From IMG/VR virus record IMGVR_UViG_2737471831_000003, positions 1 through 12,424 of that record: DNA of 12,424 bases. One strand, given 5' to 3'. A program made the position numbers and the translations under genes. The notes under the pieces are model-generated. The model searched no databases, was not told the origin of the DNA, and saw only the letters and a list, made by a program, of their open reading frames with translations. Positions 1 to 12,424 of the stretch are shown here, piece after piece (position 1 is the stretch's first letter; each line of letters opens with the position of its first letter). The stretch comes from a virus. Its lineage: Duplodnaviria; Heunggongvirae; Uroviricota; Caudoviricetes.

Positions 1-1131
1 TCACCATGCTACTTTGCTCCATCCTTTGCCTCGGTCGTCATGATAACGATCGGTTTGTTGTTGTGTTTTGTGACCAAGTAGTTTTTGTGTATCTAACCCC
101 TGTTCTTTATACAGGCGTTCAGATAACGACCTTTGCTCATGGAATGTTGCAGGTGAACCTTTCCCCCAGTCAATTCCTGCTAAGTCCCTCGCTTTACTGA
201 AATTCATCGTCAATGTGTTAGATTTAACCTGTGTTCCACGTTCAGCCTGTGAAGTCGTACGGGAAAAATGTACAAGGTATGGGCTGACTGCATAGTCACG
301 GCAGCGGGCTACTACATCGCGTAAACTCCAGTTAATCGCATTGAGGTGAAGAGAAAGAGGAATTGCGATTTTGCTCCCGGTCTTTTCCTGAATGACGTGA
401 AGATGATCCTCCCAAATATCACTAAATTTCATTTTGGATATATCTCCCAAACGCTGCCCAGTGACTAAAGCTAGGAGCATGGCATTTCCCATGTAACGAT
501 GAGTGGCGTCTGCGATATCGAATATTTTTTGCCATTCTTCCAGGCTGAGGCGTTGACGGGTAATTTTTCTTCTTGGTTGTTTAGTGGCTAATGCTGGGTT
601 ATAGCCAGGCGGAACTTCGCCGTAATGCTGTGCTTCCTTAAACACATCGATCAATACAGACCTTACGACTTGGGCCATTCTCGGCTGTCCCGCAGAGATA
701 TACTCTTCAAGCAATTGTGCTATATCTCTGACATCAACGGCCGAGATCAACTTCATTCCTGCTCTTTCCCTGAGCAAGGATACTGGTTTGGCTTTCTGCT
801 TATAGGTGTTGAGTCTTATATCACCACTTTTCAGCCTATCGTCTTGGATAGCCTGGTAACGGTCTAACCATGTAGATGTTGTGATCGCTTTTCCTTTGCT
901 GGTTGCGATCCTGTCACTGATAGCCAGAATCTGCCGGGTTCTTTGTTCAGCCAGTCGAGTGTTGGCCTCAGTGGCAATAGCGATAGCTTCAGCTTCGTTT
1001 GTTCCCAAAGCATGGAATTTTCCTGTTACTGGATGCTTATACCGCCAATAGACTTTATTTACCTTTCGGCTATAAAGCGGATATAAGTTAGGGACTGAAA
1101 CATTATTCTTACGCGGTCTGGCTGCCATCAC
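1..1131 (-). CDS. int: Tyrosine recombinase, lambda Int-family phage integrase
   Basis: 376-aa ORF. By-eye alignment to lambda Int: N-terminal PNLY arm-binding region; catalytic region TFHEQRSLSERLY...LLGHK...RYHDDRG (lambda: TFHELRSLSARLY...LLGHK...QYRDDRG) with conserved His and Tyr-nucleophile context. Stop codon at positions 1-3; first codon GTG at 1131, ATG at 1128; 5' end overlaps xis by 23 nt as in lambda. Confidence 0.93.
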   Translation of the reverse strand: MMAARPRKNNVSVPNLYPLYSRKVNKVYWRYKHPVTGKFHALGTNEAEAIAIATEANTRLAEQRTRQILAISDRIATSKGKAITTSTWLDRYQAIQDDRLKSGDIRLNTYKQKAKPVSLLRERAGMKLISAVDVRDIAQLLEEYISAGQPRMAQVVRSVLIDVFKEAQHYGEVPPGYNPALATKQPRRKITRQRLSLEEWQKIFDIADATHRYMGNAMLLALVTGQRLGDISKMKFSDIWEDHLHVIQEKTGSKIAIPLSLHLNAINWSLRDVVARCRDYAVSPYLVHFSRTTSQAERGTQVKSNTLTMNFSKARDLAGIDWGKGSPATFHEQRSLSERLYKEQGLDTQKLLGHKTQQQTDRYHDDRGKGWSKVAW

Positions 1132-1354
1132 TCAAAATCCGTTGCAAAAGTAATGAGTCATTTTTCTTAATTACTGGTGTTACCAGCTCTCCAACTAACT
1201 CGGCGTCCTCACGCACTCGCCATAACCGGCCTTGTTTCATGGCCGGTGGACAAAATAAATTCTGCTTAGCATAACGACGCAATGTGGACACACTTGGAGG
1301 ATTACTTCTGTATTTTTCAGAAGCCCATTCTTCAAGAGTTAACATTTGAAGCAT
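1109..1354 (-). CDS. xis: Excisionase (lambda Xis-like)
   Basis: 81-aa ORF; LTLEEW...PPSVSTLRRYAKQNLFCPP.K.GR resembles lambda Xis LTLQEW...PRSLETVRRWVRECRIFPPPVKDGR. RBS AAGGTGA 6 nt upstream of ATG at 1354 (second in-frame ATG at 1345). Overlaps the int start. Confidence 0.85.
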   Translation of the reverse strand: MLQMLTLEEWASEKYRSNPPSVSTLRRYAKQNLFCPPAMKQGRLWRVREDAELVGELVTPVIKKNDSLLLQRILSDGSQTA

Positions 1355-1397
1355 ATGCGATCACCTTATTACTTCACTAACTGTTCAGTCTCTGCAT

Positions 1398-1700
1398 ATC
1401 GACCCTGCAAGGTCGATTAGTTTCTCCACAAAACAGAGAAGAGCACCTGTGGCCACAACTACCAGGATGGATTGGGTTATGAGCCCGTCGTCCGGTGATG
1501 CTCTTCTCTGTTTTGTAAAAAGGACGGTACCAGCCGGAAGCAAGGGTACAAGCTGGTACCGCCAGGACTACACACAGCATAAAGTTGTGGTTCCGGGGGC
1601 CTCCCGGTGCCTGGCGAAGGTTGCACACCAGGCGGGTGGGTATCCACAGAAGGTCGACTGTCAGCCTCAACCTTAACCCGCGTGCGCTGAGCCGCATTCA
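1398..1700. other. GC-rich, highly self-complementary intergenic element (candidate structured RNA or protein-binding site); function unknown
   Basis: Contains a perfect 18-bp inverted repeat, a perfect 9-bp inverted repeat (1526-1534 GGTACCAGC / 1552-1560 GCTGGTACC, 17-nt loop) and a 7-bp hairpin (1398-1404 ATCGACC / 1411-1417 GGTCGAT). ORFs called here translate to Arg/Pro/Gly/Cys-rich peptides typical of non-coding GC-rich sequence. Confidence 0.35.
1428..1516. repeat. Perfect 18-bp inverted repeat flanking a 53-bp spacer
   Basis: 1428-1445 ACAAAACAGAGAAGAGCA is the exact reverse complement of 1499-1516 TGCTCTTCTCTGTTTTGT; read directly from the sequence. Confidence 0.85.
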
Positions 1701-1816
1701 CCACAACGCTAAGGATTCTCTCTGGTTGAAAATACTTAGCTGTTATGTGCCTGTCTTTTCACCACTTCAGGCTCGGTGGTATCCTTTTAAGCCCGTATTC
1801 ATAAAAGGAAAATCAA

Positions 1817-2062
1817 ATGACTTTTGATGAAAAAGAACTTGATAATGCAATTAATAAAATCATCGTAACGTCGCTCTTTTCCTGTCTCAGCGACACTCAG
1901 CAGAAACAGTTCTACGAATCGGCTTTCAACATGATCGAGCGTTGTTGTTTCTGCGATGCCGACGAGTTACCTGAAAAAATCAGGAAACAGTTGGCTGATG
2001 CTCTTCGAGTGCGACTTTTTGACCAATTTTCTGAAATGTACTCTCCGAATTTGGACAAATAG
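1817..2062 (+). CDS. Hypothetical small protein (81 aa)
   Basis: ATG at 1817 preceded by AAGGA (1805-1809) at 7-nt spacing; helical-looking, non-repetitive translation; imperfect hairpin 2073-2096 shortly after the stop. The 3' end overlaps the convergent minus-strand ORF 1980-2255, so only one of the two may be real. Confidence 0.45.
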   Translation: MTFDEKELDNAINKIIVTSLFSCLSDTQQKQFYESAFNMIERCCFCDADELPEKIRKQLADALRVRLFDQFSEMYSPNLDK

Positions 2063-2255
2063 AAAAAGGCCATTTCCATTCAGGGTCTGATGGAAAGACT
2101 TCAGCCTGTTCCAAAGCACGGCGTAAAGAGAACACAACTCCAGCCATAATCTGATGTTTCCCATTGGTCCAGCTATCGCCGCTCTGAGCTACAGGAGCGG
2201 CTATGTCGTATGACCAAACGACTTCACCACTATTGTTTAAAATCTGGACTTTCAT
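1980..2255 (-). CDS. Hypothetical protein (91 aa), early-left operon position
   Basis: ATG at 2255 lies 9 nt downstream of the stop of the zinc-finger ORF (operon-like packing); GGAGG is 12 nt upstream, a long spacing. The C-terminal third overlaps the plus-strand ORF 1817-2062 and passes through the 2073-2096 hairpin. Confidence 0.35.
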   Translation of the reverse strand: MKVQILNNSGEVVWSYDIAAPVAQSGDSWTNGKHQIMAGVVFSLRRALEQAEVFPSDPEWKWPFSICPNSESTFQKIGQKVALEEHQPTVS

Positions 2256-2263
2256 TTTGTTCT

Positions 2264-2485
2264 TTAACCTCCAGATTTCCGCGCATCTAAAGGCGCATTC
2301 TCATTTGGTGTGAACTGAATAGTTGTGCTGATATTGATTAATGCCCCGACACACAAGACTACGCACTCAGAGCAGATAGCAACTTCATCTTTTCCGCCTT
2401 TGGCGATGATTTTTTTTGCCTGCAGCTCGTTTGCGCCACAAAACGAGCATGTGAAATAACGGTTCATTTGCGCTCTCTTACACAT
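2264..2485 (-). CDS. Small protein with ClpX-type C4 zinc-finger motif
   Basis: CSFCGANELQAKKIIAKGGKDEVAICSECVVLC matches the ClpX N-terminal zinc-binding domain pattern (CSFCGK...x18...ICDECVDLC). Likely start is the internal ATG at 2467 (67 aa; GAGAG 5 nt upstream) rather than 2485. Confidence 0.7.
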   Translation of the reverse strand: MCKRAQMNRYFTCSFCGANELQAKKIIAKGGKDEVAICSECVVLCVGALINISTTIQFTPNENAPLDARKSGG

Positions 2486-2564
2486 AGTATTTAACGAATC
2501 ATCTTGGACTTCATATGCCCCAGGCGGCTACTTCGTGGGCGTCCTGCCTGTTCATTGTTTTAAC

Positions 2565-2625
2565 ATCTTTAAGTTGTAATTTAGTTGTGGTTTTGAATAT
2601 TGTCAACAACTTTATGTGGTTTGAA
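2565..2625. promoter_or_regulatory. Putative OL operator/promoter cluster (AAGTTGT / ACAACTT heptamers)
   Basis: AAGTTGT at 2571-2577, AGTTGTG at 2583-2589 and ACAACTTTATG at 2606-2616; the same heptamers and the ACAACTTTATG motif recur in the cI-cro intergenic region. Lies between divergent genes (zinc-finger ORF leftward, TerB/BRCT ORF rightward). Confidence 0.4.
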
Positions 2626-2669
2626 CGAGTAGCCAAGGAGTGCAAGGATTATCAAAAAAAGGAGGTTGT

Positions 2670-3560
2670 ATGGAAGACGCGCTTTACGCTTTTAATTACA
2701 CACAGAACCGGGACAAGTTATTTGCTAACTTGATTAGCATAATTGATGGAATCATTGCAGATGGAGTTGTCCGTGAAGAGGAGGTTCTTTACTTAGATAC
2801 ATGGTTACTTGAAGCAAAGCAGATTATCAATAATGGAGTTATAAAAAGTCTATCAGCACGGGTGTCGGATATTCTTGCGGATGGAATAATCACATCAGAA
2901 GAACGTGATGACCTTAAAAATAGCCTTCTCCAAATACAGAGGGAAATTCTTGATATCCCTGAAATTGATTTTTACTCCAAGGATGTAGATGTCCATTTAC
3001 TTAATGGACTATGTAAAGGATTAATTGCTGATCGGAACTTAACTCAAGAAGAAATAAGATATCTTAATTGGTGGCTTGAGCAAAATGGAGCTTTGAAGAA
3101 CAACTACCCAGGAAAAAAACTTTATGCACTTGTAAAGGAAATTCTTAAAGATGGGGTTATTACTGAAGATGAGAGTTTAACTCTACATAAGGCATTAGTA
3201 GACTTCACAGGATGTGACTTGGAAAGTGGGGTGGTGGATGGTTTGGCGACCAGGCTGCCTATTGATGTAGGGGCTTCGATAGAGTTAGAGGGTAAAACCT
3301 ATTGTCTTACAGGCACTTTTGTTGCAGGAAAGAGAGCCGTAGTTGAAAATTTGATTAAAAATGCTGGTGGGAACATCAGTAGTGGAATTACTCAAAAGTT
3401 GGATTTTTTAGTAATTGGGACGCTTTCCTCCCGTGATTGGAAATTCTCAAGTCACGGAAGGAAGATCGAAAAAGCTATATCTTATAGGGATGATAATGGT
3501 GCAAAACTTAAAATTATTTCTGAAGAAATGCTTTTCGATGCATTACCAAGTTCGCGATGA
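2670..3560 (+). CDS. Protein with four TerB-like helical repeats and a C-terminal BRCT domain (296 aa)
   Basis: ATG at 2670 preceded by AGGAGG (2660-2665); in-frame GTG at 2640. Four repeats of the form h-ADG-h-h-T/R-x-E-E (IADGVVREEEVLYL, LADGIITSEERDDL, IADRNLTQEEIRYL, LKDGVITEDESLTL) resemble TerB/DjlA-N motifs. C-terminus GKTYCLTGTFVAGKRAVVENLIKNAGGNISSGITQKLDFLVIG...KLKIISEEMLFDAL matches the BRCT pattern of NAD-ligase C-termini. AT-rich; 3' end overlaps the cI 3' end by 18 nt. Confidence 0.8.
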   Translation: MEDALYAFNYTQNRDKLFANLISIIDGIIADGVVREEEVLYLDTWLLEAKQIINNGVIKSLSARVSDILADGIITSEERDDLKNSLLQIQREILDIPEIDFYSKDVDVHLLNGLCKGLIADRNLTQEEIRYLNWWLEQNGALKNNYPGKKLYALVKEILKDGVITEDESLTLHKALVDFTGCDLESGVVDGLATRLPIDVGASIELEGKTYCLTGTFVAGKRAVVENLIKNAGGNISSGITQKLDFLVIGTLSSRDWKFSSHGRKIEKAISYRDDNGAKLKIISEEMLFDALPSSR

Positions 3561-4229
3561 CCAGAATACCCTACCTATAACATGAATTCTGGCTCGTCTA
3601 TCTTCAAAGGTGAGTATTTCATCTGGGTACTCATCTTTGTTGAAGCTTCTAAGAATCAAGCCACCGTCAGGTAAGTTGATAAGTATTTTAACCCTTAGCA
3701 ATACACCATCTCGTACGGCATAAAGATCGCCATCACGAATAGGAACGGTTTGAGAAATATCAACGGCAACAAGATCTCCATTATTGAGAACCGGTAATAA
3801 ACTGTTCCCCCATATTTTTACGATCTTGGCATTAGATGCACATACGCCAGATTTTCTCAAATCTGCTCTTCTTAACGGAAACCAGTCAATAGCTGATTCA
3901 ACTATTTCAGCCAGACATCCGTTACCTGCCGATAACTCGACATCTAAAACAGGAATGTTTACGAAAATATCGGGGTCTAATGCGGTGCTTTCTGCTTCTT
4001 TTACAACAAGATCAGGTATGGATGCGTTGTCTTCAATACCAAGTTGTAACCACTTTTGTGATACACCTAAAACTTTTGCAATTTCTTTAATTTTGCGCGG
4101 TTGTAGAGTTTCGCCATTCTCTATTTTGGCTACAGATTGTTGTGAAAGTCCAATTTTTTCAGCTAGTTGAGCTTGGCTCATGCCAGCTTTCTCTCTACCT
4201 ATCTTTAATCGTTCTGCCAGTGTTTTCAC
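3543..4229 (-). CDS. cI: Prophage repressor, cI/LexA-type (XRE HTH + S24 peptidase domain)
   Basis: 228 aa; N-terminal HTH (MSQAQLAEKIGLSQQSVAKIENGE); C-terminal S24-like autocleavage domain (GNSLLP...GDLVAVD...LLRVKIL). GTG start at 4229 with GAGGG 7 nt upstream; divergent from the cro-like gene. Confidence 0.9.
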   Translation of the reverse strand: MKTLAERLKIGREKAGMSQAQLAEKIGLSQQSVAKIENGETLQPRKIKEIAKVLGVSQKWLQLGIEDNASIPDLVVKEAESTALDPDIFVNIPVLDVELSAGNGCLAEIVESAIDWFPLRRADLRKSGVCASNAKIVKIWGNSLLPVLNNGDLVAVDISQTVPIRDGDLYAVRDGVLLRVKILINLPDGGLILRSFNKDEYPDEILTFEDRRARIHVIGRVFWSSRTW

Positions 4230-4254
4230 AACATATCCCTCTCTTTTTTGATGA

Positions 4255-4345
4255 GGTTACAACTTTATGTTTTAGCTTTCCAACACCTAAAAGTTGTGAT
4301 AAAAGTTGTTAATGTTGTATTCTTGCAACTCGTAACAACTTAACT
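4255..4345. promoter_or_regulatory. Putative OR operator/promoter region (pRM/pR) between cI and cro
   Basis: ACAACTT at 4259-4265 and 4335-4341; AAGTTGT at 4291-4297 and 4303-4309; these are the same half-sites as in the 2565-2625 cluster. Sits in the 135-bp divergent intergenic region. Confidence 0.5.
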
Positions 4346-4364
4346 ACCTAAAAAGGAGAAAGCT

Positions 4365-4613
4365 ATGACACCTGAGCAATTAGCCTTATCGGAGGCAATC
4401 GCTCTGGCTGGTGGTCAATCAGAATTGGCTCGGAAGCTCACAGCCAGCAGCGGTCATTTAGTAAAGCAACAACATGTCTGGAACTGGTTGAACAGAGAAA
4501 AGCGTCCCCCTGCAAAGCTCTCGATATTCATTGAAAAGACCACTGGCATATCAAAAGAAAAATTACGTCCAGATATTTTTCAAAAGATTAAAGATTCATC
4601 AGATGAAAAGTAA
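4365..4613 (+). CDS. Cro/YdaS-like small HTH regulator
   Basis: 82 aa; AGGAG at 4354-4358, 6 nt before the ATG; GGQSELARKL...V.NWL.......P......IEK.TG.SKEKLRPDIF pattern as in YdaS/Cro-type proteins; first gene rightward of the repressor. Confidence 0.8.
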   Translation: MTPEQLALSEAIALAGGQSELARKLTASSGHLVKQQHVWNWLNREKRPPAKLSIFIEKTTGISKEKLRPDIFQKIKDSSDEK

Positions 4614-4635
4614 CCACAGTTTTAAGGAGATAGCC

Positions 4636-5187
4636 GTGGGTAAGCATCACTGGAAAGTAGAAAAACAGCCTAAGTGGTACGTGAAAGCTGTCAGAAAAAC
4701 TATCGCAGCGTTGCCGGGGGGTTACGCTGAAGCTGCTGACTGGCTGGATGTAACAGAGAACGCATTATTTAACCGCCTTCGTGCCGATGGCGATCAGATT
4801 TTCCCGCTGGGATGGGCAATGATTTTGCAACGTGCTGGTGGAACTCACTTCATTGCTGACGCTGTGGCGCAGTCTGCAAATGGCGTCTTTGTGTCTCTTC
4901 CTGATATCGAGGATGTGGACAACGCCGATATCAACCAACGCCTGCTGGAGGTCATTGAACAGATCGGCAGTTATTCAAAACAGATTCGTTCAGCAATTGA
5001 AGACGGTGTAGTTGAACCGCATGAGAAGACAGCAATTAACGATGAGCTGTACCTCTCAATTTCGAAGCTGCAGGAGCATGCAGCACTGGTCTACAAAATC
5101 TTTTGCGTTTCAGAAAGTAGTGACGCCCGCGAGTGTGCAGCTCCGGGCGCCGTGGCGTGTCGTGACTGTGGAGAAACTAACGCATGA
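4636..5187 (+). CDS. Hypothetical regulatory protein in the cII position, possibly YdaT-family
   Basis: Strong RBS AAGGAG (4624-4629) 6 nt before in-frame GTG at 4636; alternative ATG at 4603 overlaps the cro stop. The family assignment is from memory of YdaS-YdaT pairs and is tentative. Confidence 0.55.
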
Positions 5188-5522
5188 ACAGTTTAACAAC
5201 ACACTACCGTCGCTCGCAACTGATTGCGCTTCCGGTTCCGGGTGGAAAAGCGAAGGTGGAGTATTGCTATGCAGTGAATGTACCAGGTGACAGGGAAATT
5301 GTAACCCACAGCTTTGCAGAGTGGGCTGTGGGTGATTTCAACCGGCAGAAGGAGACAGTCCTTTGCGACAAGTTAACCGCTGGTTCAAAGATCACTACGG
5401 AGTGCCCGTCAGAGTCATTCGTTGGGAACCGGAAACACAACGGGTTATCTACCTCCGCGAAGGTTATGAGCATGAATGCTTCAGTCCGCTCGAACAGTTT
5501 CGTCGTAAATTCAGGGAAATAG
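5184..5522 (+). CDS. Hypothetical protein (112 aa, ATG-initiated); C-terminal half doubtful
   Basis: ATG at 5184 overlaps the upstream stop (ATGA coupling). The N-terminal ~55 aa look protein-like, but the C-terminal half is Ser/Asn-rich and low-complexity, while an alternative frame over the same DNA looks more protein-like. Confidence 0.3.
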
Positions 5523-5542
5523 AGGTCGGTCATGAGCACTAA
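5363..5542 (+). CDS. Alternative small ORF (59 aa, TTG start), frame-2
   Basis: AAGGAG at 5349-5354 lies 8 nt before TTG at 5363. Translation [59 protein letters not shown] is charged and non-repetitive; stop at 5540-5542 overlaps the start of the replication gene. Confidence 0.35.
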
Positions 5543-6473
5543 ATTAACCGGCTATGTATGGGATGGTTGCGCTGCATCAGGCATGAAGTTATCCAGCGTG
5601 GCAATTATGGCCCGCCTGGCTGATTTCAGTAATGACGAAGGTGTGTGCTGGCCATCAATTGAAACCATTGCCCGTCAGATTGGCGCGGGGATGAGTACCG
5701 TCAGAACGGCTATCGCACGGCTGGAAGCAGAAGGCTGGTTAACGCGTAAGGCGCGTCGCCAGGGTAACCGCAATGCGTCGAATGTTTATCAGCTTAACGT
5801 TGCGAAGCTTCAGGCAGCGGCATTTTCTCAACTGTCAGATTCTGACCCGTCAAAATCTGACGCATCAAAATCTGACCCGTCAAAATTTGATGCGTCGAAA
5901 TCTGGGAAAAAAGCGGGTTTTCACCCGTCAGAATCTGGTGGGGATCCGTCAGTAAAATCAAAACATGATCCGTCAGATAAAAAACCTTCTCGTCCGGACG
6001 CTTCGCAACCGGACACGCAGAAGGCTGAACAGGATTTTTTAACTCGCCATCCTGATGCGGTTGTATTCAGCCCTAAAAAGCGCCAGTGGGGAACGCAGGA
6101 TGATTTGACCTGCGCACAGTGGCTCTGGAAAAAAATCATCGCCCTGTACGAGCAGGCCGCCGAATGTGACGGCGAGGTGGTTCGTCCCAAAGAACCGAAC
6201 TGGACAGCCTGGGCAAACGAAATTCGCCTGATGTGTGTGCAGGATGGTCGTACTCACAAACAAATCTGCGAGATGTACAGCCGCGTCAGCCGCGATCCGT
6301 TCTGGTGCCGTAACGTGCTCAGCCCGTCGAAGCTGCGGGAAAAATGGGATGAGCTTTCCCTGCGCTTATCGCCGTCCGTCAGCACGTACACCGAAAAACG
6401 CGAAGACCCGTACTTCAAAGCCAGTTACGACAACGTGGACTACAGCCAGATCCCGGCAGGATTCAGGGGGTGA
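5532..6473 (+). CDS. Phage replication initiation protein (N-terminal winged-HTH, low-complexity linker, DnaT-like C-terminus)
   Basis: 313 aa; GAGGT 5 nt before the ATG. N-terminal HTH typical of phage replication initiators (SIETIARQIGAGMSTVRTAIARLEAEGWL); central SDPSK-type linker encoded by the iteron array; C-terminus ends ...NWTAWANEIRL...QIPAGFRG, resembling (from memory) the C-terminal domain of primosomal protein DnaT (...IPPGFRG). Confidence 0.8.
   Translation: MSTKLTGYVWDGCAASGMKLSSVAIMARLADFSNDEGVCWPSIETIARQIGAGMSTVRTAIARLEAEGWLTRKARRQGNRNASNVYQLNVAKLQAAAFSQLSDSDPSKSDASKSDPSKFDASKSGKKAGFHPSESGGDPSVKSKHDPSDKKPSRPDASQPDTQKAEQDFLTRHPDAVVFSPKKRQWGTQDDLTCAQWLWKKIIALYEQAAECDGEVVRPKEPNWTAWANEIRLMCVQDGRTHKQICEMYSRVSRDPFWCRNVLSPSKLREKWDELSLRLSPSVSTYTEKREDPYFKASYDNVDYSQIPAGFRG
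5831..5985. repeat. Iteron-like direct repeat array (15-bp period), candidate replication origin
   Basis: Four consecutive 15-bp units at 5842-5901 (CTGACCCGTCAAAAT, CTGACGCATCAAAAT, CTGACCCGTCAAAAT, TTGATGCGTCGAAAT), plus degenerate CCGTCAG-containing copies to about 5980 and an A-rich stretch (5976-5985). Confidence 0.6.
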
Positions 6474-6475
6474 TC

Positions 6476-6964
6476 ATGAGTCTTTTGAATGAAGTTCAGA
6501 AATTCATTGAAGCCCATCCGGGGTGTACTTCCGGAGACATTGCGGATGCTTTTGCAGGTTATTCACGGCAGCGCGTTCTGCAGTCTGCAAGCAAGTTACG
6601 TCAGAGTGGGCGTGTGGCTCACCGTTGTGAAGGAGATACACGCAGACATTTCCCGCGCCTGACTGAGAGAGCGCAGGAGCCGGAACCACAACCAGTTCGT
6701 GAAACCAGACCTGTGCGCAATTTCTATGTCGGCACTAACGATCCCCGGGTGATTTTGTGCCTGACCCGCCAGGCTGAAGAACTGGAGTCAAGGGGCTTAT
6801 ACCGTCGTGCTGCAACCGTGTGGATGGCGGCATTCCGTGAAAGCCACTCCCAGCCAGAACGAAACAATTTTCTGGCGCGTCGTGAGCAGTGCTTACAGAA
6901 AAGCAGCAAGCGCGCTGCATCGGGTGAAGAGTGGTATCTGTCAGGGAATTACGTGGGGGCGTAA
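6476..6964 (+). CDS. PerC-like transcriptional regulator domain protein
   Basis: ATG at 6476 with GGGGG 5 nt upstream (GTG at 6470 also in frame). C-terminal AEELESRGLYRRAATVWMAAF resembles the PerC/Pch motif (A..LE.RGLWRRAA..W), recalled from memory. Confidence 0.55.
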   Translation: MSLLNEVQKFIEAHPGCTSGDIADAFAGYSRQRVLQSASKLRQSGRVAHRCEGDTRRHFPRLTERAQEPEPQPVRETRPVRNFYVGTNDPRVILCLTRQAEELESRGLYRRAATVWMAAFRESHSQPERNNFLARREQCLQKSSKRAASGEEWYLSGNYVGA

Positions 6965-7290
6965 TGACGACGTTAACTCAATGCCAGCAGCAGGTGCTGG
7001 ATATGCTGATTTCTTATCAGAAAGAGCGTGGCTTTCCGCCAACCAATCAGGAGGTGGCAACCATGCTGGGATACCGTTCGGTGAATGCAGCGGTGGAGCA
7101 TCTTCGCGCACTGGAGAAAAAAGGCGTCATCACGATAAAGCGTGGCGTGGCACGGGGGATAACGCTTCATACCGCTGTGAAGGACGACGACAGCGAGGCG
7201 GTCGGGATTATCCGCGCACTGCTTGCCGGTGAGGAAAACGCCAGGCTGCGTGCAGCCCACTGGTTACATGAGAGGGGCCTGAAAGTATGA
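6964..7290 (+). CDS. LexA N-terminal DNA-binding-domain-only protein (no S24 peptidase domain)
   Basis: ATG at 6964 overlaps the upstream stop (TAATG). QQQVLDMLISYQKERGFPPTNQEVATMLGYRSVNAAVEHLRALEKKGVITIKRGVARGITL aligns closely with E. coli LexA residues ~8-70 ([61 protein letters not shown]). The protein ends after ~108 aa with no catalytic Ser/Lys domain. Confidence 0.8.
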   Translation: MTTLTQCQQQVLDMLISYQKERGFPPTNQEVATMLGYRSVNAAVEHLRALEKKGVITIKRGVARGITLHTAVKDDDSEAVGIIRALLAGEENARLRAAHWLHERGLKV

Positions 7291-7676
7291 AGCTGATTCT
7301 GCCTTTTCCGCCCAGCGTGAACACGTACTGGCGACACCCCAACAAAGGGGCGTTTGCTGGTAAGAGCCTGATAAGCGCGGCGGGGCGCAAATTCCAGAGC
7401 GCGGCGTGTGCAGCAATAGTTGAGCAGTTACGTCGTCTGCCAAAACCAACGTCGGCACCTGCTTCAGTGGAGATCGTGTTGTTTCCACCGGATAACCGGA
7501 TCCGCGATCTGGACAACTATAACAAGGCGCTGTTTGACGCCCTGACCCACGCGGGTGTGTGGGAGGACGACAGTCAGGTGAAAAGAATGCTGGTGGAGTG
7601 GGGGCCGGTTATCCCGGAAGGGAAGGTCGAGATCACTATCAGTAAGTACGAGAAAACGGCGGGTGCAGCCGCCTGA
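7287..7676 (+). CDS. rusA: Holliday-junction resolvase RusA
   Basis: 129 aa; LPFPPSVNTYWR and RDLDNYNKALFDALTHAGVWEDDSQV match the RusA motifs ([38 protein letters not shown]). ATG overlaps the upstream stop (ATGA). Confidence 0.92.
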   Translation: MKLILPFPPSVNTYWRHPNKGAFAGKSLISAAGRKFQSAACAAIVEQLRRLPKPTSAPASVEIVLFPPDNRIRDLDNYNKALFDALTHAGVWEDDSQVKRMLVEWGPVIPEGKVEITISKYEKTAGAAA

Positions 7677-7695
7677 TTAAGAGGAGAAACGAAGT

Positions 7696-8493
7696 ATGAA
7701 TAATCTGATGGTCATTGATGGTATTGAAGTTCGTCGTGATGCTTATGGGCGTTACAGCCTGAACGATCTGCACAGGGCTGCCGGTTCTCAGGATAAGCAT
7801 AAGCCTGCATTTTGGCTCCGCAATGAGCAAACCGAACGTTTAATAAGCGAGTTGCAGATTTGCAACTCGGTCAATATAGAGCCAGTTAACGTTATTCGTG
7901 GCGGAAATAACCAGGGGACGTATGTCTGCAAAGAACTGGTGTATGCCTATGCAATGTGGATCAGTCCGTCATTCCATCTGAAGGTGATCCGTACTTTCGA
8001 TATGGTAACCAGCGCACCGGAAAAATTATCCGGGCAGGCTGCTGACAAGATGCAGGCTGGTGTGATTCTGCTGGACTTTATGCGTCGGGAGTTAAACCTG
8101 TCTAACTCATCTGTGCTTGGGGCCTGTCAGAAACTCCAGGAGGCTGTTGGTTTACCGAATCTGGCACCGCGCTATGCCATTGATGCCCCTGCTGATGCAC
8201 ACGATGGCTCAAGTCGCCCGACACTGTCACTGAGTGCACTGCTGAAACAGTATGGTATCCGCCTTACGGCTAATCAGGCATATCACCAGATGGTGAAACT
8301 GGGGATCGTCGAACAGCGCGAACGATACAGCCGTACCGCGATTAATAACATCAAAAAATTCTGGTCGCTGACGGCGAAAGGCTGCATGTTCGGCAAGAAC
8401 ATCACCAGTCCGGCAAATCCGCGTGAGACGCAGCCGCATTTCTTCGAATCCCGATTCCCTGAGCTGTTAAAGCTGCTCGATACCGTTCATTGA
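7696..8493 (+). CDS. KilA-N domain protein
   Basis: 265 aa; GAGGAG RBS at 7681-7686. N-terminal ~100 aa (IDGIEVRRDAYGRYSLNDLHRAAG...PAFWLRNEQT...YVCKELVYAYAMWISPSFHLKVIRTF) fit the KilA-N DNA-binding domain pattern. Confidence 0.8.
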   Translation: MNNLMVIDGIEVRRDAYGRYSLNDLHRAAGSQDKHKPAFWLRNEQTERLISELQICNSVNIEPVNVIRGGNNQGTYVCKELVYAYAMWISPSFHLKVIRTFDMVTSAPEKLSGQAADKMQAGVILLDFMRRELNLSNSSVLGACQKLQEAVGLPNLAPRYAIDAPADAHDGSSRPTLSLSALLKQYGIRLTANQAYHQMVKLGIVEQRERYSRTAINNIKKFWSLTAKGCMFGKNITSPANPRETQPHFFESRFPELLKLLDTVH

Positions 8494-8494
8494 G

Positions 8495-9490
8495 GTGACC
8501 GTGAGAGCGCTACTGACCCCTGAGATTGCCCCGCGTATGGGGATCGTATTGTTCAGACCCGGTTCAGAGCTGATGCCCCTGTTTATGCAGGGGCGTGTCC
8601 TGCTGGAGCCTGAGCCGGAGCGTTATTCATCTTTCGCCAGTGGTGCCGTTCCGGCGGCATCACAACCGCTGGCGGATGATCCTGCCGTTCGGGCCGTGTT
8701 CCGCAATGAGGCAGTGATCCGTCGTGCTGGTGGCGTGGAATGTCTTGAAAGCTGGTTACTTCGTGAAAAAGGCTGCCAGTGGCCTCATTCCGACTGGCAC
8801 AGCGAGAACATGACAACAATGCGACACGCTCCGGGCGCAATCCGTCTGTGCTGGCACTGCGATAACCAGCTGCGCGATCAGTTCACGGAACGGCTGGAAT
8901 CAATGGCAACGGATAACTGTGCCCGCTGGGTGTTGTCTGTTGTGCGTCGGGATCTCGGTTTTGATGATAGTCACGTTGTGACAATGCCGGAACTGTGCTG
9001 GTGGCTGATTCGTAATGACCTGGCGGATGCCTTACCGGAAAGTGCAGCCCGTAAGGCACTGAGATTACCGAGGCCTGTTGTGCCGTCTGTCACCCGGGAA
9101 AGTGACCTTGTGCCTTCGGTTCCTGCCACCAGCATCATCCAGGATAAAGCGAAAAAGGTGCTGGCGCTGAAAGTGGATCCGGAGTCGCCGGAGTCTTTTA
9201 TGTTACGCCCAAAACGTCGCCGCTGGGTTAATGAAAAGTACACGCGCTGGGTTAAGACACAGCCGTGTGCATGTTGTGGAAAGCCTGCTGATGATCCCCA
9301 CCACCTGATAGGTCACGGTCAGGGTGGAATGGGAACAAAAGCGCATGACCTCTTTGTGTTGCCTTTGTGCAGAAAGCATCACGACGAGCTGCATGCGGAT
9401 ACCGTGGCATTTGAAGAGAAGTATGGCTCCCAGCTGGAGCTGATATTTCGTTTTATCGATCGTGCGCTGGCAATTGGCGTGCTGGCCTGA
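8495..9490 (+). CDS. DUF968-like phage protein with C-terminal Cys/His-rich (HNH-like) motif
   Basis: 331 aa; likely start GTG at 8501 (GAGG 5 nt upstream) rather than 8495. C-terminal CACCGKPADDPHHLIGHGQGG...HDLFVLPLCRKHHDELH is a zinc-binding/HNH-like signature; the position after rusA/KilA-N matches DUF968 genes in Qin-type prophages (from memory). Confidence 0.65.
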   Translation: MTVRALLTPEIAPRMGIVLFRPGSELMPLFMQGRVLLEPEPERYSSFASGAVPAASQPLADDPAVRAVFRNEAVIRRAGGVECLESWLLREKGCQWPHSDWHSENMTTMRHAPGAIRLCWHCDNQLRDQFTERLESMATDNCARWVLSVVRRDLGFDDSHVVTMPELCWWLIRNDLADALPESAARKALRLPRPVVPSVTRESDLVPSVPATSIIQDKAKKVLALKVDPESPESFMLRPKRRRWVNEKYTRWVKTQPCACCGKPADDPHHLIGHGQGGMGTKAHDLFVLPLCRKHHDELHADTVAFEEKYGSQLELIFRFIDRALAIGVLA

Positions 9491-9507
9491 TTTTGTGGAG
9501 AAAGTTG

Positions 9508-9855
9508 ATGCGTGATATGTATGAAGTATTGGACCGCTGGGGAGCATGGGCTGCAGCAGATAACAGTGGCGTGGACTGGCAGCCGATAGCTGCAGGCTTC
9601 AAGGGGCTTTTACCTCATGGCAAAAAGTCCCGGATTCAGTGTGATGATGACGAAGGCATTATGATAGACAGTTGTGTGGCTCGGTTGAGAAAGTATAAAC
9701 CAGAGGAATATGAGCTAATCATAGCTCACTTTGTCATTGGTATCTCATTACGCACTATTGCCAAGAAGAGAAGATGTTCAGATGGCACAGTTAGGAAAAA
9801 ATTGCAGACTGCCTTGGGGTTTGTTGAAGGATGTATTTGTTTGATTGAGTTCTAA
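9508..9855 (+). CDS. Q: Late-gene antiterminator Q (phage 82/QuuD-like family)
   Basis: ATG at 9508 with GGAG 7 nt upstream (an upstream TTG at 9493 is also in frame). VLDRWGAWAA...DWQPIAAGFKGLL...SRIQCDDDEGIM resembles E. coli QuuD as recalled; Cys pairs consistent with a Q zinc finger; last early-right gene before the lysis cassette. Confidence 0.75.
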   Translation: MRDMYEVLDRWGAWAAADNSGVDWQPIAAGFKGLLPHGKKSRIQCDDDEGIMIDSCVARLRKYKPEEYELIIAHFVIGISLRTIAKKRRCSDGTVRKKLQTALGFVEGCICLIEF

Positions 9856-9883
9856 AAAGAATGAGGCGTAAGCCTCATTCTTT
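9856..9883. terminator. Bidirectional intrinsic terminator between Q and the convergent membrane-protein gene
   Basis: Perfect 12-bp stem (9856-9867 AAAGAATGAGGC / 9872-9883 GCCTCATTCTTT) with GTAA loop, A-run on one side and T-run on the other. The minus-strand gene's stop codon (9875-9877) lies in the stem. Confidence 0.75.
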
Positions 9884-10444
9884 ATCTTTAATTATAAGTT
9901 TCGATTTTTCATCATGCATTTTGTCTATCATAAAATACATACCTAATGCCGTTGTGTATATAATGTTGCATATGGTACTTAAATAAATAAACAAAAGTAA
10001 TGATTTCACTAGTGGATATGATGAAAGGTGTAATTCCTTGATGCTTGCACTGGTTAGTTGAAGTGCTCCTCCAACGAAATACAGCGCGATGCTCATAAAC
10101 GCTAAATAACCAAATAGATAAGTGAGGAATTTACGCCTTGTAAGTTTTTTACCTTTTAATACCGGAGGTATGCCATGCATAACTTCATCCATACCATCCT
10201 TACTGAAGGTTGCAACTGCAGCCATAGATGCAATGTAAAAACCAGATAGTATTTGAAGTATCCCGTTTACTAAAGACACAAGACTATCCTTCCCGAGAAG
10301 TGAGATGGTTTTCGGTAAGTAATAGATGGATAAAGTAATAATTGCAGCAGTGAAAATGGGTAAAACCCAGTCAAAAAATCGCTTCTCAGGATGCTTTATG
10401 CGTAGGTAGTCTATAGGTGTAAAAACCTTAGATAAAACATACAT
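9875..10444 (-). CDS. Small integral membrane protein, 4 predicted TM helices (189 aa)
   Basis: Start ATG at 10444 with AGGAGG 5 nt upstream (the longer ORF to 10537 would overlap the upstream gene). Four hydrophobic segments: FFDWVLPIFTAAIITLSIYYL, LVSLVNGILQILSGFYIASMAAVATF, FLTYLFGYLAFMSIALYFVGGAL, LVKSLLLFIYLSTICNIIYTTALGMYFMI. AT-rich. Confidence 0.75.
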   Translation of the reverse strand: MYVLSKVFTPIDYLRIKHPEKRFFDWVLPIFTAAIITLSIYYLPKTISLLGKDSLVSLVNGILQILSGFYIASMAAVATFSKDGMDEVMHGIPPVLKGKKLTRRKFLTYLFGYLAFMSIALYFVGGALQLTSASIKELHLSSYPLVKSLLLFIYLSTICNIIYTTALGMYFMIDKMHDEKSKLIIKDKE

Positions 10445-10476
10445 ATATGCCTCCTTTTGACAGGTTTTCCATGCCT

Positions 10477-11412
10477 TCACTTTAACATAAAGTTTTGCAT
10501 TTTTGCGAGAAGTTCTTCGTGAAATGCTGTTTGGCAAACGGCAATTGTTGATGCCAACACTGCTTTTTCACGTTGTGCCAATTGTGCTGTTGCGAGTTCC
10601 TGTAAGCTCATTTCTTTTCCGATGGAAACAAGATCTGATGAAACGCGTTTATTTTTGTCTTTATAAGAAATTCTTAACATTGTATACTTTCTACCACGAA
10701 GTTTGTCATATGCAGACTTAATCGCCTTAATTGCACCCTCTCCGCGACGTATTTTTGTTGATAGCTTTAGTGTTTCTTCTTCAACCATTACTGTGCCATC
10801 ATCATCTAAAGAGTTATCTTTAAAGCGACGAGTAGCAGTAAGTCCACATAAATAACCAGTGGATAGAGATTGCTCAAGTGTTGTTGCAGCCAAAAAATCA
10901 ATGTCGAAAATAGGTCTGCACTTAAGTTCTTTTTTCCCTCCTGAACGGATAAAGGAAAAATTATTTTCTCGCAGGAAATAAGTTAAAGCTTGGGCTAATA
11001 AACCTCTGGTAATGCCCGGAACTTCTTCTAAAATTGCCTCATAACAATCTTGGAATGATGAGTCGCTCGGTCTTTTTTTGATAAGCACATGAGCAGAGTA
11101 CCCCATACCTTCATCATTTTGCTTTTTCTCAATTCTGGTTTCACCAGTTTTTATGTTGGAAAAGGCGGGATCAGAAGCATCTTTATTTATATATTGAAAA
11201 AGCAATTTCAGGTAATTTTCATCGTCTTTTATGGATAGCAATCTTATGACAGAACGTCCTTTGTTTAATTCGTAAACAGCTTCTCCTTTGTTATAGCGAT
11301 TTTTTAAAACAGGAATACAGTTTACTAAAGGCATGTCAGGTGCGTCATTAGGATACTTCTTTAAAGTAACCTGGCATTTGATCATGAAACGTTCATTATC
11401 TCCCAAGAGCAT
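10477..11412 (-). CDS. Hypothetical soluble protein (311 aa) with a possible Pol-beta-type nucleotidyltransferase signature
   Basis: ATG at 11412 with AAGGA 6 nt upstream; AT-rich. IRSGGKKELKCRPIFDIDFL (residues ~156-175) fits the hG[GS]-x9-13-DhDh pattern; an acidic cluster SLDDDG lies ~30 residues downstream. No family recognised with confidence. Confidence 0.7.
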   Translation of the reverse strand: MLLGDNERFMIKCQVTLKKYPNDAPDMPLVNCIPVLKNRYNKGEAVYELNKGRSVIRLLSIKDDENYLKLLFQYINKDASDPAFSNIKTGETRIEKKQNDEGMGYSAHVLIKKRPSDSSFQDCYEAILEEVPGITRGLLAQALTYFLRENNFSFIRSGGKKELKCRPIFDIDFLAATTLEQSLSTGYLCGLTATRRFKDNSLDDDGTVMVEEETLKLSTKIRRGEGAIKAIKSAYDKLRGRKYTMLRISYKDKNKRVSSDLVSIGKEMSLQELATAQLAQREKAVLASTIAVCQTAFHEELLAKMQNFMLK

Positions 11413-11472
11413 ATCTGTTCCTTATACGAGCACTAATACTGATTGCTGTTTTTAGTTCAGCAGAACCAAAGG

Positions 11473-11501
11473 TTAACTGATTGTGCTTGATAGTATATAT
11501 T
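11473..11501 (+). promoter_or_regulatory. Putative late promoter (pR'-like)
   Basis: TTAACT (11473-11478), 17-bp spacer, TATATT (11496-11501), in an AT-rich region about 240 bp upstream of the holin and about 70 bp upstream of a plus-strand terminator hairpin. Sequence-only prediction. Confidence 0.3.
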
Positions 11502-11566
11502 TTTCACTAACGCGTACGCAAAAAGTATTGTATCGTGTTAAGAGTGGTTACTTCGCCACACAACTT

Positions 11567-11596
11567 AAACCCGCCGCTGAGCGGGTTTTGTCGTTT
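11567..11596 (+). terminator. Putative tR'-like intrinsic terminator upstream of the lysis genes
   Basis: 8-bp stem (11567-11574 AAACCCGC / 11581-11588 GCGGGTTT) with 6-nt loop CGCTGA, followed by TGTCGTTTCT. Confidence 0.5.
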
Positions 11597-11740
11597 CTGG
11601 GCCTAGGGATTCGTTGGGCCTGGTCTATCCCGCAGTTATCCATTGGCTCGGCTTCTTTGACGTTTCCGCTTCTGATTTGCGGTACATGATGTTCCCTCAA
11701 TTTGCACCTGCTGTATCAGCGAGGTGAGAGATAACTACAA

Positions 11741-12067
11741 ATGCCTCATAACCCAAATACCTGGCTGGAGTTGGTCCAGAGCTGGTGGCGTGGAGACACA
11801 CCGCTGGGCGCAGTGATTATGTCGATTGTTATGGCTGGTTTACGTATTGCCTATTTTGGCGGTGGTGGCGGCTGGAAGCGAAAAACACTCGAAATTCTAC
11901 TCTGTGGCGCTCTGACGCTGACTTTTGCATCCGCTCTTGAGTATGTCGGATGGCCTAAATCACTATCTGTTGCCATTGGTGGTGGGGTGGGGCTGATCGG
12001 TGTCGATGCTATTCGTGGGGCTGCAATGAGAGTAATCGGTAACAAGTTTGGTGGCTCTAAGGAGTAA
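11741..12067 (+). CDS. S: Holin, lambda S-like (class I)
   Basis: 108 aa with three hydrophobic segments and a charged C-terminus, similar in size and hydropathy to lambda S; stop 3 nt before the endolysin start. Confidence 0.8.
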   Translation: MPHNPNTWLELVQSWWRGDTPLGAVIMSIVMAGLRIAYFGGGGGWKRKTLEILLCGALTLTFASALEYVGWPKSLSVAIGGGVGLIGVDAIRGAAMRVIGNKFGGSKE

Positions 12068-12070
12068 TTT

Positions 12071-12424
12071 ATGCAGGTACTAAATTCCCAGCGTAAAGCT
12101 TTCCTCGATATGGTGGCATGGTCAGAAGGAACGGATAACGGGCGACAACCGACACGTAACCACGGTTATGATGTTATTGTTGGCGGCGAACTGTTTACTG
12201 ATTACTCCGATCACCCTCGCAAACTTGTCACGCTAAACCCCAAACTCAAATCAACAGCCGCCGGGCGTTATCAGCTTCTTTCACGCTGGTGGGATGCTTA
12301 CCGTAACCAGCTTGGTTTGAAAGACTTTTCCCCCAAAAGCCAGGACGCAGTGGCATTGCAGCAGATTAAAGAGCGTGGTGCTTTACCGATGATTGATCGC
12401 GGTGATATGATCCTACCCACGTAA
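12071..12424 (+). pseudogene. R: Endolysin R (lambda-type lytic transglycosylase), truncated after ~112 codons
   Basis: AAGGAG 6 nt before the ATG. The first ~112 residues are near-identical to lambda R as recalled (NSQRKAFLDM.AWSEGTDNGRQ.TRNHGYDVIVGGELFTDYSDHPRKLVTLNPKLKST.AGRYQLLSRWWDAYR.QLGLKDFSPKSQDAVALQQIKERGALPMIDRGD); the frame then reads MILPT-stop, encoded by IS-end sequence. Lambda R is 158 aa. Confidence 0.85.
12408..12424. mobile_element. Terminal inverted repeat of an IS3-family element (IS3 IRR-like) at the window edge
   Basis: TGATCCTACCCACGTAA matches the outer end of the IS3 right inverted repeat as recalled (TGATCCTACCCACGTAATATGGACACAGGCC...). The element body lies beyond the window. 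Confidence 0.6.

Follow-up and report, generated by a model that had tools for sequence, protein, structure and literature searches.

A gene for a 296-residue protein that ends in a BRCT domain lies between the left operator and the cI repressor gene in the DNA studied here (IMG/VR record IMGVR_UViG_2737471831_000003, positions 1 to 12,424; this whole stretch of 12,424 nucleotides is referred to below as the window), which is the left half of an SfV/CPS-53-like lambdoid prophage of Escherichia coli. The gene is real, functional and under strong purifying selection, and it is an accessory gene of the lysogeny/immunity module, being neither a core phage function nor a ligase. Judging from sequence and predicted structure, its product is non-catalytic and consists of two acidic helical units followed by a DNA-type BRCT domain with an intact phosphate pocket. 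The function that we favor, tentatively and with slightly less than an even chance of being right, is that the protein would be made in the lysogen, bind nicks, gaps or ends in DNA and exclude, or defend against, superinfecting phages; the DNA binding, the expression in the lysogen and the exclusion role are the parts of this proposal that we infer.

The BRCT gene and its product

The original prediction had read a 296-residue open reading frame here, and the frame is indeed present, at 2640-3560 of the plus strand, with its start codon, ATG, at 2670. This is the true start, as a Shine-Dalgarno sequence lies upstream and two sets of homologues, of 35 and 88 members, all align from this methionine; in total, homologues with this start number in the hundreds. 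PGAP gives the same 296-residue product (WP_000389078.1), labelled a BRCT domain-containing protein, and phrog_3989, a family of unknown function, matches it over its full length (1.5e-128). The gene, its parts and the two other genes of the cassette are as follows (window positions):

2670-3560, plus strand: coding sequence of the BRCT-domain protein, 296 residues, stop codon 3558-3560 (phrog_3989 match, PGAP, substitution rates)
2660-2665, plus strand: Shine-Dalgarno sequence AGGAGG, 4 nt 5' of the ATG, invariant in 58 distinct upstream regions
2691-2963, plus strand: helical unit 1, residues 8-98, isoelectric point (pI) ~4.3 (AlphaFold helices, repeat analysis)
2973-3221, plus strand: helical unit 2, residues 102-184, homologous to unit 1 (hhalign)
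3282-3542, plus strand: BRCT domain, residues 205-291, basic (pI 9.2), with pocket residues T214-G215, R222 and K265
3543-4229, minus strand: cI-like repressor, 228 residues, helix-turn-helix and S24 peptidase, convergent with the BRCT gene and overlapping it by 18 nt
4365-4613, plus strand: Cro/YdaS-type repressor, the third member of the cassette

The median ratio of nonsynonymous to synonymous substitution rates (dN/dS) was 0.054 for the BRCT gene and 0.036 for cI; in pairwise comparisons of 56 distinct alleles, it was close to 0.05 in each of the three parts of the BRCT protein. Because this ratio is as low as that of the neighboring repressor, the gene can be taken to encode a working protein. 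The AlphaFold model, computed with a deep alignment (predicted local confidence, pLDDT, 93; predicted template-modelling score, pTM, 0.91) and replacing one from a shallow alignment (pLDDT 66), is compact, with two four-helix units (residues ~8-98 and 102-184) and then the BRCT domain (205-291). The N-terminal half of the protein is acidic (pI 4.4), while the BRCT domain is basic.

The C-terminal BRCT domain that had been predicted was borne out. Residues 206-290 match Pfam BRCT (PF00533) with 29 bits, where the gathering score is 21.3, and 82 of 88 family members match as well; the predicted order of elements, beta1-alpha1-beta2-beta3-alpha2-beta4-alpha3, is that of the BRCT fold. Profile searches and Foldseek both point to the RFC1/LigA type: LigA and RFC1 were the top Foldseek matches, and the closest entries in a profile search of PDB sequences were the BRCT domain of RFC1 p140 (2ebu/2k6g, E 2e-8) and LigA BRCT domains (about 1e-6). 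T214-G215, R222 and K265 are nearly invariant in the family and align to the ITG...R...GTK residues of RFC1. The phosphate pocket of BRCT domains is formed by S/T-G plus a Lys (PMC10386641), and the isolated RFC1 BRCT domain binds DNA with a recessed 5'-phosphate at a Kd of ~10 nM (PMC9293004). The domain thus belongs, by its predicted fold and residues, to the phosphate- or 5'-phosphorylated-DNA-binding class of RFC1 and LigA. Because the conserved pocket aligns with the RFC1 residues, the protein probably binds a phosphate-bearing ligand, most likely a 5'-phosphorylated DNA discontinuity. RFC1 and LigA BRCT domains are its best matches in both sequence and structure, with the TG...R...K pocket kept, but the window protein has neither the AAA+ clamp-loader module nor the adenylation, OB, Zn and helix-hairpin-helix (HhH) domains of the ligase.

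Some homologues carry the label 'NAD-dependent DNA ligase', which is an over-annotation from the BRCT domain alone. Annotation as a ligase or as DNA polymerase epsilon was considered and rejected, the BRCT domain being the sole matching part: no LigA adenylation, OB-fold, Zn-finger or HhH domain was found in the window protein, and the NCBIfam LigA models match it over their last ~50 positions only, scoring 20-28 bits against cut-offs of 369-1051.

The acidic N-terminal units

Four spaced motifs of the form ADG-x-I/V-T-x-E-E had been noted in the N-terminal half, and these proved to be genuine repeats, at residues 29-39, 69-79, 119-129 and 159-169. In unit 1, the model places helices at residues 10-28, 36-50, 56-69 and 76-94, all with a pLDDT above 90, and the hairpin motifs read 'ADG..REEE' (nt 2754-2786) and 'ADG.ITSEE' (nt 2874-2906); those of unit 2 lie at nt 3024-3056 and 3144-3176. 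Unit 1 (residues 15-92) and unit 2 (residues 105-182) align with an hhalign probability of 99.8% (E 1.2e-27), and within each of them a helix hairpin is duplicated (E 2e-6 to 3e-7). The four motifs are thus evenly spaced because there are two homologous units, each of them a duplicated hairpin. Unit 2 is the part kept in shorter homologues of ~210 residues, which match residues ~100-290.

The description of these repeats as TerB-like, by contrast, was not supported in the form given. The window protein has no match to TerB (PF05099) at E<=10 in the Pfam profile search. The family consensus reaches 20.9 bits in unit 2, its best sub-threshold match, and 20.0 bits in the N-terminal part, below the gathering threshold of 24.4, and covers a single hairpin (profile positions 10-39, about 30 of 118). 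Among the Pfam families other than BRCT, TerB ranks first for the consensus and for 16 of the 88 family members, in which it appears at E<=1 (best 9.5e-5). Neither the profile search of PDB sequences nor Foldseek retrieved a TerB structure, and hhalign gave the N-terminal family a probability of 2.7% against a bona fide TerB protein, encoded beside the BRCT gene of a Serratia prophage. What the units share with TerB and DjlA-N is helix hairpins with an acidic 'ADG....E' motif. As membership in TerB is not established, arguments from ter-operon phenotypes do not transfer, and the N-terminus is, on present sequence comparisons, an acidic helical repeat that resembles TerB and has no assigned family.

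The acidic 'DG.IT..E' hairpin also matches, weakly, SHOCT, EF-hand and the phage CII/YmfL (CP76) family. The last of these matches falls at residues 58-92 (NF041471, E 1.6e-4; also phrog_6499 and phrog_101), Pfam Phage_CP76 is matched by 5 of the 88 relatives, and a YmfL/CP76 member is encoded 1 kb away in the window (4630-5187). In the Serratia prophage mentioned above (GCA_946228225.1), the true TerB protein (141 residues, PF05099, 30 bits, E 7e-7) is encoded at 5348-5773 of locus L005, on the minus strand, directly upstream of and divergent from the BRCT gene, with no detectable homology between the two.

Association with phage repressors

It had been proposed to check whether homologues recur beside the repressor of other prophages, and they do so in all enterobacterial loci checked and in five more distant lineages. 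The enterobacterial set comprised 86 loci, 80 from IMG/VR and six genomic or metagenomic (L001-L006), and in 86 of 86 a convergent cI homologue comes next after the BRCT gene, with cro beyond it; a seventh genomic or metagenomic locus (L007) ends just inside cI. The three genes diverge in parallel across the 86 loci, with identities of 69-100% for the BRCT protein, 58-100% for cI and 62-100% for cro, while the genes farther to the left vary. Among 5,426 complete E. coli genomes, the same DNA at an identity of at least 99% was found in 47-48 (cI in 48, the BRCT gene in 47) and was chromosomal every time; neither this cI type nor a close homologue of the BRCT protein occurs in any isolated phage of the INPHARED set.

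SfV, SfII, SfIV and others share both flanks of the cassette, but their immunity cassettes are different ones, in which nothing separates cI from the pL leader. The cassette thus measures ~1.2 kb from flank to flank in the SfV-type phages (cI-cro only) and ~2.2 kb here. In addition, E. coli RMDEC465 (NZ_CM177019.1; locus L091, 2780-2960) has a natural internal deletion of the BRCT gene, in which the start MDDAL... is fused to a C-terminal piece ...SRDWKLSNHGRKIEKA; its cro is intact, its cI is intact and diverged (92.5% amino acid identity), and the adjacent ClpX zinc-finger gene is frameshifted. We consider the BRCT gene accessory because the SfV-type relatives do without it and RMDEC465 holds a deleted remnant.

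The boundaries at which the immunity cassette has recombined can also be seen. On the left, the leader block at 2492-2566, downstream of pL, is 93-98% identical in the heteroimmune phages SfV, SfII, SfIV, PhiR29 and others, and holds a small GGCGTCCTGCC hairpin, with a run of T after it on the plus strand; on the right, the boundary lies at 4625-4700, at the start of ymfL.

Beyond the Enterobacterales, the family is large, with 3,445 cluster representatives (clusters at 50% identity) at E<=1e-3, some 2,000 members at E<=1e-10 and 373 cluster representatives at E<=1e-30, and has two chief architectures, of ~295 residues (two units plus BRCT) and ~210 residues (one unit plus BRCT). The gene orders around distant homologues are listed here, x being another gene:

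Vibrio phage K139, orf2 (33% identity): PL, then cI-orf2-glo-int; the record marks the promoter of the lysogenic operon and a mapped 'lysogenic transcription start site'
P0121: cI, then BRCT
P0131: cI, x, BRCT, int
P0160: S24 repressor, then BRCT
P0150: cI, x, x, BRCT, PemK, in a P2-like element
Pseudomonas phage Lodos: int-x-BRCT
Sulfurimonas phage SNW-1: BRCT homologue divergent from cII
P0125: solitary chromosomal gene with no phage genes nearby

In K139 and four further lineages, the homologue is co-directional with the repressor and downstream of it. K139 Orf2 (NP_536630.1; also in Kappa as kp3, in VPUSM8 and in 919TP) has 301 residues and aligns over its full length, at 33% identity over 95% of the query. 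It shares the architecture of the window protein and is likewise encoded in the lysogeny module beside the repressor, but K139 is a P2-like myovirus in which the gene runs in the direction of the repressor, whereas the window gene converges on an S24-type cI. The K139 repressor is moreover a 186/P2-type CI (Phage_CI_repr plus Phage_CI_C) and not an S24 protein. The association is therefore one with the lysogeny operon generally and not with RecA-cleavable repressors, and a specific coupling to S24 (RecA-cleavable) repressors, which we had considered, is weakened. The repressor operon is also used by other cargo, namely a PemK-family toxin in the P2-like element (L102, 5081-5509) and glo in K139 (L008, 4858-5271).

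Longer relatives fuse one unit plus BRCT to a DEDDh exonuclease (P0195, P0258, P0210) or to HhH2 and a second BRCT domain (P0153, P0219). The exonuclease fusion corresponds to PDC-S48, an unvalidated defence candidate of PADLOC and, among catalogued systems, the closest relative of the window protein. Residues 119-251 of the window protein match positions 239-377 of the 411-residue PDC-S48 model (PDLC05027) at E 2.4e-7; the E values of P0210, P0216 and P0214 against this model are 1e-19 to 1e-23, so that the two architectures are linked through relatives. Both proteins thus have a C-terminal module of one helical unit plus BRCT, but where PDC-S48 has an N-terminal DEDDh 3'-5' exonuclease (~8-164), the window protein has its second helical unit, and no DEDDh or RNase_T match was found in it with Pfam. 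PADLOC gave no other match for the window BRCT protein. The earlier statement that the protein matches no described system therefore stands, as only the unnamed phrog_3989 and the module common to candidate PDC-S48 were found.

Operators, promoters and transcription

The gene had been placed between OL/pL (the left operator and leftward early promoter) and cI, in the orientation opposite to cI, and this is confirmed by the operator copies and leftward promoter to the left of the gene. A palindrome-like operator of 15 bp (approximately ACAACTTTAAGTTGT) occurs at 2563-2577, 2606-2620, 4259-4273 and 4283-4297, and its half-site AAGTTGT occurs 9 times in the window against 2.2 expected, a number reached in 0 of 200 shuffles. 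The control elements are the following:

2606-2620, strandless: operator-like OL2 (ACAACTTTATGTGGT), overlapping the pL -35 and abutting the putative BRCT promoter -35
2563-2577, strandless: operator-like OL1 (ACATCTTTAAGTTGT), over the start region of pL
2578-2606, minus strand: predicted pL, -35 TTGACA at 2606-2601, -10 TAAATT at 2583-2578
2621-2649, plus strand: putative BRCT promoter, -35 TTGAAC at 2621-2626, 17-nt spacer, TG-n-AAGGAT at 2641-2649 (read from sequence)
4255-4345, strandless: right operator (OR) region, with the operator motif at 4259-4273 and 4283-4297 and half-sites at 4303-4309 and 4335-4341

The predicted pL (TTGACA-17-TAAATT, 10 of 12 consensus matches) is conserved and sits between the two left operator copies. 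We aligned 58 distinct regions upstream of the BRCT gene, from E. coli, Citrobacter, Serratia, Klebsiella and others. The TGTCAACAACTTTATGTGGTTTGA block and the TG-n-AAGGAT with its A-rich Shine-Dalgarno region are invariant or nearly so, while the 17-nt spacer between them varies freely. From this pattern we infer that the conserved blocks are OL2 and the -35 (TTGAAC or TTGATT) and extended -10 of a putative promoter of the BRCT gene. Transcription would then start near 2656, with the center of OL2 at about -43, which is the geometry of lambda cI at OR2 activating pRM; repression of the putative promoter by cI is, however, equally conceivable. By eye, no LexA box was seen in 2500-2670.

The BRCT gene and cI are convergent and overlap, by 18 nt here and by 9 nt in relatives, and no clear terminator separates them, so that the transcription of one must interact with that of the other. 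A 15-bp hairpin (3605-3639, fold z -3.7) lies ~45 nt past the BRCT stop codon, inside the 3' coding end of cI. We did not accept it as a terminator. Its 8-bp core is kept in 12 loci, with one covarying pair, but encodes a conserved cI peptide, EYPDE, so that the conservation is confounded by coding constraint and the hairpin is a putative structure.

Possible functions

In the function that we favor, the basic BRCT domain would dock on 5'-phosphorylated DNA discontinuities, such as nicks, gaps and recessed ends, and the two acidic four-helix units would offer a surface for partner binding or oligomerization. The gene would be transcribed from its own promoter, back-to-back with pL, and a repressor bound at OL, with OL2 centered at about -43, would shut pL and permit or stimulate the BRCT gene in the lysogen; elsewhere among phages, the homologue would be transcribed together with the repressor. 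The target would be the DNA of a superinfecting phage, where the sealing, circularization or processing of incoming or replicating genomes may be blocked, or where incoming genomes may be marked for, or may recruit, a host nuclease. The outcome would be a single-protein exclusion or defence in the niche of RexAB, SieB, BstA and K139 Glo. The suggestion made first from the sequence, of a cargo protein for exclusion, defence or the sensing of DNA damage, is thus plausible.

The repressor-adjacent position is the source of several founding examples of lysogen-expressed exclusion, rexAB, sieB, bstA and glo. Like lambda rexAB, P22 sieB, BTP1 bstA and K139 glo, which adjoin the repressor, lying between it and pL or in its operon, the window gene is accessory, AT-rich and patchy in distribution and occupies that location. 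It differs from them in that its protein has no sequence or domain similarity to theirs and in that it runs opposite to cI. The joining of the same unit plus BRCT module to DNA-acting domains in relatives also speaks for an action at DNA, and BstA offers a precedent for a single prophage protein that acts at phage DNA (PMC8585504). Expression in the lysogen, which the proposal needs, has indirect support from K139, whose record puts the homologue in the lysogenic operon, and from the conserved promoter-like element next to OL2.

Several points weigh against this proposal. The protein lacks an effector domain, and no partner gene is conserved besides cI and cro. The uniformly low dN/dS and the divergence in parallel with cI and cro suggest a fixed partner rather than a sensor in an arms race, and within the Enterobacterales the gene is never found with another immunity type, which is unusual for cargo that shuffles freely; the overlap of its 3' end with cI may, however, account for this fixed pairing. 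The promoter, with its weak -10 (AAGGAT), was not called by a strict consensus scan, and with convergent, overlapping transcription, strong joint expression of the BRCT gene and cI is not self-evident. The homologue P0125 stands alone in a chromosome, without neighboring phage genes. Finally, we found no experimental study or function in the literature for any family member, K139 orf2 or PDC-S48.

An unlikely alternative is that the protein is a third component of the switch, working with the repressor to tune the maintenance or induction of the prophage, for example by coupling nicks, damage or incoming DNA ends to repressor activity, or that convergent transcription into cI serves as negative feedback on the repressor level. 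The three genes co-diverge and are never split in the 86 loci, relatives keep the 3' overlap with cI, six independent lineages have a repressor gene next to the homologue, purifying selection is close to that on cI, and the putative promoter abuts an operator; BRCT domains are, in addition, classic modules of the DNA-damage response. However, sister phages of other immunity types have the same switch architecture but no BRCT gene, the deletion derivative RMDEC465 persists with intact cI and cro, and some homologues (Lodos, SNW-1, P0125) have no repressor nearby. The partner repressors also differ mechanistically, being mostly S24 autopeptidases but a 186/P2-type CI in K139, which argues against a specific link to RecA-dependent cleavage.

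We consider it improbable that the protein is made early after infection or induction to help the phage with its own DNA transactions, for instance by protecting or presenting nicks and ends in circularization, replication or recombination, or by recruiting the host ligase or polymerase. A LigA/RFC1-like BRCT domain would suit such a role, as would the fusion of relatives to a DnaQ-like exonuclease or to HhH-BRCT modules of the repair type and the nearby integrase in several phages, and a promoter beside OL, divergent from the early pL operon, could equally be one that cI represses. Yet K139 and four other lineages place the gene in the repressor operon, which is lysogenic and not early lytic, close relatives with the same replication and recombination genes lack it, and OL2 abuts the -35 without covering it.

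Equally improbable is a role in lysogenic conversion or counter-defence, in which the protein would act on host DNA metabolism, for example giving tolerance of DNA damage or masking ends and nicks from the nucleases of the host or of rivals. Conversion genes such as glo also lie in a lysogeny operon, the homologue P0125 stands alone in a chromosome, and a non-catalytic protein with an acidic N-terminal half recalls some inhibitor and mimic proteins. The helices of the acidic region, however, form a well-packed bundle in which hydrophobic and Trp positions are conserved, rather than an obvious DNA mimic, and no known anti-defence family was matched in the profile library searches. Just as doubtful is a more far-reaching proposal, in which a widespread class of immunity modules has the BRCT protein as an integral and co-evolving third member, a RecA-independent sensor of DNA discontinuities (nicks, gaps or incoming genome ends) feeding the switch or immunity. 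The repressor would control its expression by activating a pRM-like promoter at OL, and its transcription toward cI would feed back on cI.

The remainder of the window

Outside the immunity cassette, the window holds the following genes:

1-1131, minus strand: integrase
1109-1354, minus strand: excisionase
2264-2485, minus strand: ClpX-type zinc-finger protein, the last of the small early-left genes
4630-5187, plus strand: CP76/YmfL cII-like protein
after 5187, plus strand: replication genes, RusA, KilA-N, DUF968 and Q
from 11741, plus strand: lysis genes

The AT-richness that had been noted for the BRCT gene extends over the entire immunity cassette, the GC content being 0.35-0.41 across 2600-4400, while that of the replication genes is 0.50-0.57. 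Another cargo cassette rich in AT (9875-11412, minus strand, GC 0.35-0.39) lies between the Q antiterminator gene (9493-9855) and the holin and lysozyme genes. It encodes a 311-residue protein (10477-11412) that matches the PADLOC candidate PDC-M53A (1e-17) and, in an overlapping gene (9875-10537), a membrane-like protein of 220 residues that matches PDC-M53B (2.7e-39); neither has a Pfam match. As the same prophage holds this second candidate defence cassette, PDC-M53, it can be regarded as a cargo-bearing phage.

Significance

While the genomic niche and lysogen-expressed accessory proteins in general are well known, the architecture described here and its systematic association with phage repressors appear to be undescribed, and the databases label these proteins as 'BRCT domain-containing protein', wrongly as 'NAD-dependent DNA ligase', or as an unnamed PHROG. 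This is a large family found at the repressor position in lambdoid and P2-like phages of several bacterial orders. If exclusion is its function, it would represent a defence protein without an enzymatic effector that recognizes DNA structure, and would account for the targeting module of PDC-S48, the PADLOC candidate. If tuning of the switch is its function instead, DNA structure would be an input to, and thus a new channel into, the textbook cI/Cro switch.

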